DNA from: Candidatus Hodarchaeota archaeon
GTDB lineage: Archaea; Asgardarchaeota; Lokiarchaeia; Sigyniarchaeales; SOKP01
Direction of reading: 5' to 3'
DNA: 64,000 nucleotides
Assembly (NCBI GenBank): GCA_048887225.1
Contig: JBHLJY010000009.1
Coordinates: 1-64,000, forward strand
Shown: positions 33,368-36,804 of the stretch, piece by piece
Position numbering within the stretch: position 1 is the stretch's first letter
Layout: each line of letters begins with the position of its first letter
Notes under the pieces: generated by a model
The model's database searches: none
What the model was told of the DNA's origin: nothing
What the model saw: only the letters and a program-made list of their open reading frames with translations
Program-made: the position numbers and the translations under genes

Positions 33368-33634
33368 TTATGTGCTCATCAATCTAAACAAAAGTGAACT
33401 ATGAGGAATAAAAAATTCATCTTTACGCTTGATAACGACTGTATGAAAATATTCAGCCAATCCAAGGAATCCACGGATTACGCTCTCATCCTCCTCAAAT
33501 TTGAAGATCACATTCGCAATCGATGAGCCTGCGTTAAAAGTAACCTTCTCATATACTCTCTCGTCAATTAATGGGATTTTCAATTCATTAACTATTTCAT
33601 ATACTCTTTTAATGAAAAGTTCTTTCTTTGCCAT
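33368..33634 (-). CDS. Small hypothetical protein, divergent from the actin locus
   Basis: 88-aa ORF with GGTG RBS upstream and globular composition. Confidence 0.7.
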   Translation of the reverse strand: MAKKELFIKRVYEIVNELKIPLIDERVYEKVTFNAGSSIANVIFKFEEDESVIRGFLGLAEYFHTVVIKRKDEFFIPHSSLLFRLMST

Positions 33635-33945: not shown

Positions 33946-34611
33946 GTGGTGTCAGAGAAGAAGAAAATAAATCGTGTCATTAGTTTCTTGAAAAAAGGTT
34001 TATCAGGATTAGCTGATGAATTAGAAGGAACTGTTGAAGGAATCAACGAATTTATAAAATCCTTATCAAAAGCTCAGAAAGATCTTAAAGAAATACCCGC
34101 AGAAGGCGAAGTTCAAACAGTGAGTACATCATCTAAGAAAGTTGCTGCTACTCCTGGCGCGGCAAAAACTGCAGCCGCTAGTACTTTATTTACTTTATTA
34201 AGTGGTCCTTCTGAAGGTGAACAAGTAAGTCCAACTCCCACAGCTGCAGTTGCAGCTCCTAGTGATATGGCTAAACCATCAGGTGGTGGACCTCCAAAAG
34301 CTCCTTCAATTGGTGGACCTCCAAAGGCTCCAGCGAAAGCTAGTCCTCCTTCTCGCGGGAGTGATCTACCTCCTGCTCCTAAACTTCCTCCAGGTGCAGG
34401 AGGAGGTACTGGTCCGCCTAAAGCCCCTGCTGCATTTGGTGCTTATGCAAAAAGAGCTCCAGCCCCTGCGGGTGGTGGACCTCCAAGTGCCACTGGGATG
34501 CCATCAGCTCCGACTGCAACAACAGCTCAAGTAGGTGGGGGATTAGGTTCACTAAGGGATGAGATGTTAGAGGAACTAACTCGTTTAAAAAAGATAATGA
34601 GAGGAGAATAA
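33946..34611 (+). CDS. Coiled-coil / Pro-Gly-rich / WH2-like protein (candidate actin regulator)
   Basis: N-terminal heptad helix, GPPKAP x3 plus GGGPPSA and LPPAPKLPPG, C-terminal LRDEMLEELTRLKKI. Confidence 0.75.
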   Translation: MVSEKKKINRVISFLKKGLSGLADELEGTVEGINEFIKSLSKAQKDLKEIPAEGEVQTVSTSSKKVAATPGAAKTAAASTLFTLLSGPSEGEQVSPTPTAAVAAPSDMAKPSGGGPPKAPSIGGPPKAPAKASPPSRGSDLPPAPKLPPGAGGGTGPPKAPAAFGAYAKRAPAPAGGGPPSATGMPSAPTATTAQVGGGLGSLRDEMLEELTRLKKIMRGE

Positions 34612-34801: not shown

Positions 34802-35917
34802 ATGGGTAATCCTACTATTGTTTTGGACATTGGTCAATTTTCCACGAAAGGTGGTTTTGCAGGGGAAGATTATCCAAGTCAAGTGTTTTTTACTATAGTT
34901 GGGAAACCAAAATATCACGATCTTGAAGGACAGTACGGTGATCGTGAGCAAGAATTGTACGTTGGTGACGAGATTCAGTCTCTTGGATTATATAAAATAC
35001 ATTCACCTATTCAAAATGGAGCTATTGTTGATTGGAACTATTTTTCTAAAATTTTAGATTATATATTTTATAGTTTAAGAGTCGATCCCACTCTTGTTAA
35101 TGTGCTATTTGCCGTCCATCCATTGTTCCCTAAAAAAGATTTAAATAGGATTTTTGAACTATTCTTGGAACATTATCAATGTATGGCTTTTTATCCTGTA
35201 ATGGATTGTATGTTAACGCTATATTCAGGTGGATTTCAAACTGGTTTAGTTGTTGAAATTGGAGATAGTAGTACTAGAATTGTTCCTATTTATGAAGGAT
35301 TCAAATTAGATCACCCAATTAAAATTTTAGATATTGGAGGTAATGTTTTAACTCGACATTTGGAAATGCTAGTCGCATCAATAGGTTTTCCAGTTGATAC
35401 GTCGATAAGAAAGGATTTGGTAAGAGTATTAAAAGAAAAGGCGTGTTTTGTATCTTTAGATTATAATGAAGATCTTAAGAGAGCTGAACACTATTCGAAG
35501 CAATATTCTTTACCAGATGGATCAACAATTTCTCTTTCTAAGGAAAGATTCATGATTCCGGAAGTTTTATTTAAACCATCCTTAATAAACTTAGAGTTTT
35601 CTTCGCTACCAAGGGCCATCATGGAAGTCATCGATTTATGTGATTTAGATATCCGTTCTGATTTATTAAATAACATTTTTTTAACAGGAGGTTCTTCAAT
35701 GTTTCCTAATCTCAAATCTCGGATTTATAGCGAGCTAGAATTAGAATTAGCAAGACAGAAGAAAAAAAGTCAAGGGATAAGAATCATCGCGCCGAGGGAA
35801 AGAACTTTTTCAGTTTGGGTAGGAGGTTCAATTTTAGCAATGATTCCAGAATTTACTAAAAATTGGATAACGCGTTCGAAATATTTTAAAGAAGGAATCC
35901 CTGATAATCTATTATAA
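34802..35917 (+). CDS. Divergent Asgard actin / actin-related protein
   Basis: LDIG..TKGGFAGEDYP, YVGDE, IVDW, TGLVVEIGD, VPIYEG, LDIGG..LT, LKEKACFVSLD, YSLPDG, ERF..PEVLFKP, LTGGSSMFP, IAPRERTFSVWVGGSILA. Confidence 0.95.
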   Translation: MGNPTIVLDIGQFSTKGGFAGEDYPSQVFFTIVGKPKYHDLEGQYGDREQELYVGDEIQSLGLYKIHSPIQNGAIVDWNYFSKILDYIFYSLRVDPTLVNVLFAVHPLFPKKDLNRIFELFLEHYQCMAFYPVMDCMLTLYSGGFQTGLVVEIGDSSTRIVPIYEGFKLDHPIKILDIGGNVLTRHLEMLVASIGFPVDTSIRKDLVRVLKEKACFVSLDYNEDLKRAEHYSKQYSLPDGSTISLSKERFMIPEVLFKPSLINLEFSSLPRAIMEVIDLCDLDIRSDLLNNIFLTGGSSMFPNLKSRIYSELELELARQKKKSQGIRIIAPRERTFSVWVGGSILAMIPEFTKNWITRSKYFKEGIPDNLL

Positions 35918-36030: not shown

Positions 36031-36402
36031 TTGGAAAAACTTCCTGAAAATAATATTAATAAATCACCTCTCATGAAGAAATATTACAAGCCGAGTTATG
36101 CCTCAATGTTTAATAGAATCAAAAGTATAGACGCACCAGTAAAAAATGATTTAATTATTGCGTTATTGGATGGTAAATGGCATAGCGAAAAGGATTTAAT
36201 TAGATTAGCAAAAAAACAACAACATAATTATATAGGTCCTGTTTTACTCGGAACTATGATTAATTCATTAAATCATATGATTAAAAATAATTACGTCGAA
36301 AAACAGATTATAGATGGCGAAATGTATTATAAAATTTCTGATAATTACGTAGGTCTTACGAGAGCAGCTTATACTAAATACAACTTCAATGTAGAATTTT
36401 AA
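36031..36402 (+). CDS. Winged-helix-like protein, paralog A
   Basis: APVKNDLIIALLDGKWHSEKDL...YVEK..MYYKISDNYVGLTRAAYTK. Confidence 0.75.
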   Translation: MEKLPENNINKSPLMKKYYKPSYASMFNRIKSIDAPVKNDLIIALLDGKWHSEKDLIRLAKKQQHNYIGPVLLGTMINSLNHMIKNNYVEKQIIDGEMYYKISDNYVGLTRAAYTKYNFNVEF

Positions 36403-36438: not shown

Positions 36439-36804
36439 ATGGAACCCTTTGATGAAAAAAGATTTAATATGTCAACATTGATTAAAATTCAATTTAAACC
36501 TGAATATGCTAATATGTTTAAAAAAGTTAGGGATATAAGGGCTCCTATTAAAAATGAGATAGTTATGGCTCTCCTTGACGGTAAATGGCATTCTGAAAGA
36601 GAATTAATAACTTTCGCTAAAAAAAAATATAATTTTATTGGCCCTCTTACGTTGGATAGTATGGTTAATTCTTTAAATACAAACATAAATAATAATTTTT
36701 TAGAAAAGCGAATAGACAACGAAAGGACTTTTTATAAACTTTCTGATAATTATATCGGATTAACGAGGGCAGCATATACAAAATTTAGGTACATTATTAA
36801 GTAG
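36439..36804 (+). CDS. Winged-helix-like protein, paralog B
   Basis: APIKNEIVMALLDGKWHSEREL...FLEK..FYKLSDNYIGLTRAAYTK; AAGGTGTG RBS. Confidence 0.75.
   Translation: MEPFDEKRFNMSTLIKIQFKPEYANMFKKVRDIRAPIKNEIVMALLDGKWHSERELITFAKKKYNFIGPLTLDSMVNSLNTNINNNFLEKRIDNERTFYKLSDNYIGLTRAAYTKFRYIIK

Follow-up and report, generated by a model that had tools for sequence, protein, structure and literature searches.

A contig of a Candidatus Hodarchaeota archaeon (JBHLJY010000009.1, assembly GCA_048887225.1) carries, within the 64,000-nucleotide stretch analysed here (positions 1 to 64,000, hereafter the window), a gene for a divergent actin paralogue (34802 to 35917, + strand). The gene is intact and selectively maintained, and it encodes a stand-alone actin-fold protein that the genome possesses in addition to its Lokiactin. 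It belongs to a clade of paralogues which, among the genomes sampled, does not extend beyond a single order of Asgard archaea of the Lokiarchaeia type, and in the window's own family the ATP site is rewired by substitutions that are almost without exception shared by all members. The role we tentatively favour is that of an accessory subunit acting on Lokiactin, with a separate filament system as its foremost rival.

According to the list of open reading frames (ORFs), the coding sequence of 371 aa runs uninterrupted from an ATG start to its stop codon, which is included in the coordinates above, in a window that is AT-rich (~30% G+C). The product matches the Pfam Actin family (PF00022) over residues 4-365 with E=1.2e-86 (291 bits, against a cut-off of 27), and the phosphate-1, phosphate-2 and adenosine motifs of the actin fold are colinear in it, as judged from alignments, an AlphaFold2 (AF2) model and Foldseek. 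Among solved sequences it comes closest to 9wc4, an HC1 actin of the Lokiactin type (5.8e-87), and to actins of eukaryotes, and the 60 best PDB sequences are without exception actins. So are the top 50 Foldseek matches of the AF2 model (E 1e-36), which has a predicted local distance difference test (pLDDT) score of 74.7 and finds its best matches in actins at 35-38% identity. When compared with one chain per PDB cluster, the model scored Z 26.4 against actin and Z 26.6 against Arp3, at identities of 35% and 24%, respectively; identity to the model was 22% for Arp4, 23% for Arp11, 18-24% for Arp8 and 17% for crenactin, and the solved Arp3, Arp4, Arp8, Arp11 and crenactin span 17-29% identity to the paralogue. 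Neither this comparison of a predicted structure nor Foldseek singles out any one eukaryotic Arp as an orthologue. When longer, fused forms were searched for, the only matches were eukaryotic actin fusions (<=39% identity), none of them from the clade.

The assembly to which the window belongs (3.27 Mb in 49 contigs, 98% complete) contains four actin-family genes. A canonical Lokiactin of 381 aa, with DNGTG, Q137, H161 and an HRCF end, lies on another contig (C5) and is 40% identical to the paralogue; another actin-family gene encodes a distant form of 382 aa. Profilin and gelsolin-domain proteins are also encoded, and to our knowledge profilins, gelsolins and Lokiactin are the only Asgard actin-system proteins to have been studied. 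Searches of the genome for the ARPC subunits ARPC4 and ARPC2 (PF05856, PF04045) gave no match, the control genomes being silent as well. As a separate observation, a 508-aa actin-family paralogue on contig C3 (locus L003 1477-3003) bears an insertion of ~130 residues in the subdomain-3 region, which is Cys-rich and zinc-ribbon-like, with four CxxC pairs.

Distribution, phylogeny and constraint

A word-indexed search for relatives of the paralogue returned >120 clusters of the same length at 70-97% identity, and in a sequence library reduced to 50%-identity clusters one representative stands for the entire group, after which the next match falls from 632 to 339 bits. The distribution was scanned in 301 Asgard genomes spread over the phylum, with families given taxonomy codes. 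Copies at 62-97% identity were present in ~60 of the 68 genomes from the window's own family (f1), the eight genomes that have none being 71-92% complete, and copies at 49-56% identity in all seven genomes of a sister family of the same order (f2). Beyond these two families, the best matches lay at 41-45% identity, i.e., at the level of Lokiactin, which occurs in nearly all Asgard families sampled, whereas the paralogue is limited to this one order. The clade as a whole is recognizable by a G-Q/E-F-S phosphate-1 loop, an Arg at the position of H161 of actin, an insertion in subdomain 3 and a tail that is not of the HRCF type. Several close homologues at 72-75% identity (P0036, P0045, P0048, P0066, P0117 and others) carry source labels of Thor-, Odin-, Hod- or Hermodarchaeota; these foreign-class labels conflict with the scan and likely reflect mislabelled bins.

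The tree comprised 78 rows, namely 16 clade members, 20 Lokiactins representing 17 families, the genome's two remaining actin paralogues, and 40 unnamed representatives of clusters at 50% identity, among which divergent or chimeric gene models are mixed; named eukaryotic Arps (Arp1-10) were left out of it. Supports are quick Shimodaira-Hasegawa-like approximate likelihood ratio test (SH-aLRT) values. The 16 clade members formed a monophyletic group (SH-aLRT 100) whose stem measured 1.1 substitutions per site, and the 20 Lokiactins were likewise monophyletic (97), with very short branches and the paralogue clade outside them, while deeper relations were unresolved. Together with the canonical Lokiactin found elsewhere in the genome, this exclusion bears out the earlier note on this DNA, which had proposed an actin paralogue separate from Lokiactin: a placement within conserved Lokiactin was looked for, and the paralogue falls outside. 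An approximately unbiased (AU) test nevertheless did not reject a topology joining the clade with the Lokiactins of its own order (delta lnL 11, p=0.31). Because of this result and of the restriction to a single order, we consider it quite possible that the clade arose when Lokiactin was duplicated within this lineage, with a burst of change afterwards. Lokiactin, which shares fold, length and colinear motifs with the paralogue and is its best match outside the clade (40-45% identity), is thus possibly its ancestor, although Lokiactin has kept Q137, H161, DNGTG, DxGDG, HRCF and a conserved D-loop (the DNase-binding loop), all of which differ in the paralogue.

The ratio of nonsynonymous to synonymous substitution rates (dN/dS) against three congeners is 0.08-0.09, and therefore the gene is under strong purifying selection. 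At the same time its rate of evolution exceeds that of Lokiactin: when the two were compared over the same genome pairs, identities were 62.5% and 50.7% for the paralogue against 95.8% and 90.6% for Lokiactin, and amino-acid differences in the paralogue were ~1.4 to ~9 times those in Lokiactin. Within an alignment of 121 family members, conservation reaches 95% or more at 157 of the 371 positions, among them D135, H106, E152, D155 and R159 of the altered catalytic region described below.

The clade has a representative in a cultured organism. Candidatus L. ossiferum encodes four actin homologues, Lokiactin and three proteins that "cluster with other ARPs" (actin-related proteins; Rodrigues-Oliveira et al. 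2023, PMC9834061). In a search of the genome collection, primer 82F for one of these, UYP44126.1, matched the L. ossiferum chromosome CP104013.1, and both primers used for its reverse transcription quantitative PCR (RT-qPCR) fall in one ORF of 373 aa (locus L056 393-1514). This protein, one of the 16 clade members in the tree, is 51% identical to the paralogue over the full length and joins it in a common clade with SH-aLRT 100; UYP44126.1 is the L. ossiferum orthologue of the paralogue. It shares with the paralogue the GQFS loop, the Arg at H161, the subdomain-3 insertion and a tail ending in L or ML instead of HRCF. Since the primers map UYP44126.1 to this orthologue, the clade is already present, as an uncharacterised L. 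ossiferum ARP, on the published tree. The functions of Asgard ARPs have been stated to be unknown (PMC7444086), and our literature search found no paper on the function of this clade or on a rewiring of its ATP-site residues.

The ATP site and the filament contact surfaces

In actin, Q137 puts the attacking water in place, with H161 serving as the base (PMC3587832), while the loop at 108-109 packs on H161 and gates its flip (PMC10062479). Replacing either residue by Ala in Arp2 and Arp3 (Q137A or H161A) abolishes hydrolysis and affects nucleation little (PMC3587832); as cited there, ParM with a mutation at its counterpart of Q137 has no ATPase activity and polymerises normally. We compared the paralogue with the Lokiactin of its own genome and a conventional actin by alignment, and located a series of changes in and around this site, all on the + strand. 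The phosphate-1 loop reads DIGQFSTK (residues 9-16, 34826 to 34849), with S14-G15 of actin changed to Q-F and D11 and K18 kept; across the 121 family members, its D, G and K are found in all, Q12 in 120 and F13 in 118. The sensor loop PIQNG (residues 69-73) stands in place of P[IV]EHG of actin and is a variant of this particular sequence, PIEKG being the commonest form in the clade, with the top share at both variable positions. The Pro-rich loop AVHPLFP (residues 104-110, 35111 to 35131) replaces TEAPLNP, so that A108 of actin becomes H106, a His in 120 of the 121 members. In VMDCMLT (residues 133-139, 35198 to 35218), whose first six residues correspond to [AS][IM]QAVL in actin, Q137 becomes D135, an Asp in 121 of 121 members. 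Finally, the phosphate-2 loop EIGDSSTR (residues 152-159, 35255 to 35278), the counterpart of D[SI]GDGV[TS]H, combines the substitutions D154 to E, G158 to S and H161 to R159 with retention of D157; E152 occurs in 119 members, and its Gly, D155, S156 and R159 in all 121. At the other end of the protein, the tail GIPDNLL (35894 to 35914) takes the place of HR(K)CF and is specific to the clade, with a family pattern G-I-P-x-N-L-L (G in 121, I in 111, P in 119 and the two L in 104 and 105 of the 121 members) and a sister-family form [IV][PS]E[ED][LMV]L. The earlier note had listed these departures from actin in the phosphate loops (including H161 to R), the sensor loop, AVHPLFP and MDCML, as well as the loss of an RKCF end, and the alignments place every one of them where it had been read. 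The set goes beyond chance because of the strong Pfam match, the >120 close homologues and the low dN/dS reported above.

Residues that anchor the nucleotide are invariant throughout the order, namely D9, G11, K16, G154, K211, E212, G296 and G297 (D11, G13, K18, G156, K213, E214, G301 and G302 in actin numbering), and because of this invariance adenine-nucleotide binding is likely retained. The catalytic positions, in contrast, take three combinations within the clade. In f1, including the paralogue, A108 is H, Q137 is D, D157 is D and H161 is R; in the sister genus g11 the same four positions are H, D, A and R; and in genus g10 and L. ossiferum they are N, G, A or S, and R. What remains constant across the clade is the Arg at position 161 (R159, invariant order-wide) together with the GQFS loop. 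D157 is thus lost in the sister family, and the Asp at 137 in part, a stepwise degeneration there that differs from the frozen centre of f1.

These differences bear on what each branch may be able to catalyse. For members of the L. ossiferum type, a loss of hydrolysis is the natural reading of the residues. The Asp/His/Arg centre of f1 could instead be a remodelled active site. Bacterial actins have an acidic catalytic residue at the position equivalent to Q137, a likeness that extends to ParM and MreB despite their distance from the paralogue (11-15% identity, Z 10-15), and because of it a working site appears as probable in f1 as a dead one. In either case, the residues present suggest that the polymerisation-triggered flip of H161 known from actin would be unable to operate in the paralogue. 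The suggestion in the earlier note of a protein that hydrolyses ATP poorly is therefore not borne out for f1, where D135, H106, E152, D155 and R159 are invariant or nearly so across the 121 sequences; the underlying idea of catalytic loss would better suit the sister family including L. ossiferum, the only place where the centre has plainly degenerated (Q137 changed to G, D157 to A/S).

Constraint on the filament contact surfaces was estimated as weighted column entropy, computed over 33 clade sequences and over 20 Lokiactins, using sets of F-actin contact residues that we assume to be those of the structural literature. Of the contact elements in the clade, the D-loop varies most, with an entropy 1.98x the clade mean, vs 1.06x in Lokiactin. 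In the paralogue this region is charged (KYHDLEGQYGDREQE, residues 37-51, 34910 to 34954); its sequence and length vary across the clade, and sister-family members have 3-6 residues fewer there. Residues 191-198 are relaxed too (1.84x in the clade vs 0.73x in Lokiactin). The other longitudinal contact element, the subdomain-3 loop ELELELARQKKKSQG (residues 311-325, 35732 to 35776), contains a clade-specific 4-residue insertion relative to Lokiactin and actin as well as a basic patch; all clade members have the insertion, with variable sequence. Both walls of the barbed-face cleft, on the other hand, are conserved, at 0.37x (139-148) and 0.74x. The first, LYSGGFQTG (residues 140-148, 35219 to 35245), has Y141, G143, G144, F145 and G148 invariant order-wide, and the second, GGSILAMIPEFTKNW (residues 341-355, 35822 to 35866), has G341, G342, S343, L345, P349, F351 and W355 invariant; F145, P349 and F351 are specific to the clade. 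The pointed vs barbed difference in entropy is borderline (permutation p ~0.05). Changed filament contacts, as the earlier note had anticipated, are seen most clearly in the D-loop, the least constrained surface; the charge it had described there is present, yet two hydrophobic positions are retained in the family, residue 41 as L/I/V/F and residue 45 as Y/F in 104 of 121 members. The surface pattern would fit a protein whose barbed face binds a partner, for instance a regulator or Lokiactin at its pointed end, and whose own pointed face stays free.

Gene neighbourhood

Upstream of the paralogue and on the same strand lies a gene for a Pro-rich protein of 221 aa (33946 to 34611, +), with an N-terminal helix, GGPPKAP repeats and a C-terminal helix LRDEMLxELxRLKKIMRGE. 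A Pro-rich protein of 220-260 aa occupies an upstream, same-strand position in all f1 loci examined; the N-terminal helix is conserved, the number of GGPPKAP repeats varies, the motifs LPPAPKLPP and FAKRP recur, and the C-terminal helix is almost invariant. The gene adjoins the paralogue in the window's genus, and in most other f1 genera a PIG-L deacetylase gene lies between the two. Further features of the protein are a hydrophobic LLSG motif, a Pro-rich arm and an end helix of the form ..L[RK][DEN]EM[LM]xE[LI]xR[LI]K.., the leucine spacing of which, compared by eye with the MIM1 consensus of ESCRT-III, fits inexactly. Neither terminus matched the Pfam WH2 domain (E up to 5) or another family. 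The Pro-rich family also occurs in f2, f4, f5 and f14, of which f4, f5 and f14 have no paralogue, and in G162 and G210, the two f2 genomes with both genes on one contig, a distance of 44-70 kb separates it from the paralogue. We had considered the neighbour as a dedicated WH2-like partner and rejected this idea, the Pro-rich family being wider than the range of the paralogue. A conserved gene of ~90 aa (..IKRVYEIVNE.KIPLIDERV..) is found near the Pro-rich gene in five of six distant loci (L070-L075, the exception being L070), and in the window the two are at 33368-33634 (-) and 33946-34611 (+); they look like a gene pair that extends across the phylum.

The DNA that separates the Pro-rich gene from the paralogue contains oligo-T stretches, and a TTTATA lies ~35 nt ahead of the ATG. 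Given the AT-rich DNA, we take these only as a weak hint that the paralogue may have a promoter of its own.

A PIG-L/LmbE-family deacetylase (PF02585, 2e-23) is encoded directly upstream of the paralogue in most f1 genera and is absent at the window locus. Pairs of PIG-L and paralogue genes were located at L039 (5210-5959 and 5959-7092) and L038 (7117-7869 and 5998-7101), and a PIG-L gene at L043 (5161-5907). In the sister genus g11 the PIG-L gene overlaps the start of the paralogue by one base, which suggests that the two are co-translated there. Where the paralogue has the Pro-rich protein beside it, UYP44126.1 has a Ras-family small GTPase (Pfam Ras 6e-42), a conserved upstream neighbour in L. 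ossiferum (L056 1725-2294) and genus g10 (L040 7267-7860 and L041 5066-5656). Beyond the GTPase, a divergently transcribed gene encodes a protein with a zinc-ribbon-like C-terminal CxxC...CxxC (452 aa in L. ossiferum, 459 aa in L040 and 464 aa in L041).

On the downstream side, the f1 neighbours comprise small winged-helix-like proteins, together with a type IA topoisomerase encoded convergently. In the window, two tandem paralogous proteins of ~120 aa (..LLDGKWHSE.. and ..SDNY[VI]GLTRAAY..) follow at 36031-36402 and 36439-36804 (+), the copy at 36031-36402 having no Pfam match, and other f1 genera have a single gene of this kind in the same place (L043 7236-7580, L036 4942-5304).

Possible roles and significance

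Among the roles considered, we lean, at somewhat less than an even chance, towards an ATP-binding accessory actin-related protein whose nucleotide cycle would be uncoupled from F-actin-type assembly and which may act sub-stoichiometrically on Lokiactin, seed- or cap-like, through its barbed face. The paralogue would still bind ATP-Mg; deprived of the Q137/H161 switch, its nucleotide cycle would be very slow or be run by another, Asp-based chemistry, and would be uncoupled from assembly of the F-actin type; and the protein would dock on Lokiactin as a minor accessory subunit and not as the bulk filament. We prefer this reading because the cleft is conserved, the D-loop and the subdomain-3 loop are variable or carry an insertion, and transcription of the orthologue is low. 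On the last point, all three L. ossiferum ARPs, UYP44126.1 included, are transcribed several-fold less than Lokiactin in RT-qPCR (PMC9834061), in line with the proposal of the earlier note that the paralogue is not the main filament.

Several considerations weigh against this accessory role. The invariant D135, E152, D155, R159 and H106 resemble a working site, and hydrolysis may be normal or fast; high overall conservation and hydrophobic residues 41 and 45 of the D-loop would also suit a self-polymerising protein. The asymmetry between the two faces is borderline and depends on the assumed contact sets, and the expression data come from an orthologue that is 51% identical, belongs to another family and has a different catalytic centre (G at Q137, A/S at D157 and N at A108 in UYP44126.1 and its near relatives, against D, D and H in the family of the paralogue). 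Gene neighbours, which change across the order between PIG-L, the Ras-like GTPase and the Pro-rich protein, give no consistent functional pointer.

Some of the same observations bear on a second, rather unlikely explanation, namely that the paralogue forms its own homopolymer, a minor second filament system driven by ATP hydrolysis at an Asp-based centre, much as acidic residues serve in bacterial actins such as ParM and MreB, and dedicated to a specialised task in this order. The invariant catalytic residues just listed suggest a functional site, the extent of conservation (157/371 positions at least 95% conserved, dN/dS 0.08) is typical for polymer formers, and the barbed-face cleft and two hydrophobic D-loop positions are kept. 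Even a lost ATPase would be compatible with a filament, given the ParM mutant that, as cited in PMC3587832, polymerises without it. However, clade members differ in both the length and the sequence of the D-loop and have extra residues inserted in the subdomain-3 contact loop, while the loss of D157, and partly of D137, in the sister family is ill-suited to a clade-wide polymer driven by hydrolysis. In L. ossiferum, moreover, the sole filament identified is that of Lokiactin, and the transcript of the orthologue is several-fold lower (PMC9834061).

Returning to the accessory role on Lokiactin, eukaryotes offer an analogy in the Arp2/3 complex, Arp11 of dynactin and the nuclear Arp4/Arp8, all divergent copies of the actin fold that exist beside a filament-forming actin, although their structural similarity to the paralogue (Z 20-27) comes with identities of 18-24%, vs 35% to actin. 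By this analogy one might speculate, and we regard it as doubtful, that an Asgard order independently made its own "Arp" from a Lokiactin duplicate through the change of H161 to R combined with A108 to H, which would relocate the catalytic His, and of Q137 to Asp, yielding a protein with a nucleotide state no longer coupled to polymerisation that seeds or caps Lokiactin filaments at the pointed end as a functional analogue of Arp2/3 or Arp11.

A third explanation follows the nuclear Arps more closely, and we consider it improbable: the paralogue would be an ATP-locked, non-filament subunit of another complex, like Arp4/Arp8 in chromatin remodellers, with the fold serving as a scaffold. Replacement of catalytic residues with retention of the nucleotide anchors would suit such a protein, solved Arp4, Arp8 and Arp6 are good structural matches (Z 19-23), and the winged-helix-like proteins and type IA topoisomerase downstream in f1 are DNA-related. 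These neighbours are, however, not conserved in the sister family or L. ossiferum, no partner complex was identified, and the paralogue is closer in identity to actin (35%) than to the Arps (18-24%). Last, that the gene is a mere Lokiactin isoform or a decaying duplicate with no function of its own is very improbable, for although the AU test does not reject a join with the order's own Lokiactins and the best matches outside the clade are Lokiactins and actins, the protein is only 40% identical to its own Lokiactin, sits in a separate clade on a long stem, and has a dN/dS of 0.08, an intact ORF in ~60 genomes and invariant hallmark substitutions that contradict decay.

Relative to the published tree, the new elements here are the primer link to UYP44126.1, the tabulation of catalytic states family by family, with A108H as a co-substitution, the result of the AU test, the figures for rate and selection, and the asymmetry in surface conservation. 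Because the clade is order-specific, it cannot be the direct ancestor of an Arp from the last common ancestor shared by eukaryotes (LECA), barring wide loss, and an order-restricted clade alone should not be read in that way. It does provide a clean test case: a single-copy, stand-alone and strongly constrained protein, with a family-invariant rewiring of the ATP site and an orthologue in the cultured L. ossiferum. If the paralogue binds filament ends or nucleates, this would represent a division of labour among actin paralogues in Asgard archaea, possibly independent of that in eukaryotes; if it forms a second filament, it would constitute a new cytoskeletal system. Either outcome would bear on the cytoskeletal complexity of the archaeal ancestor of eukaryotes.

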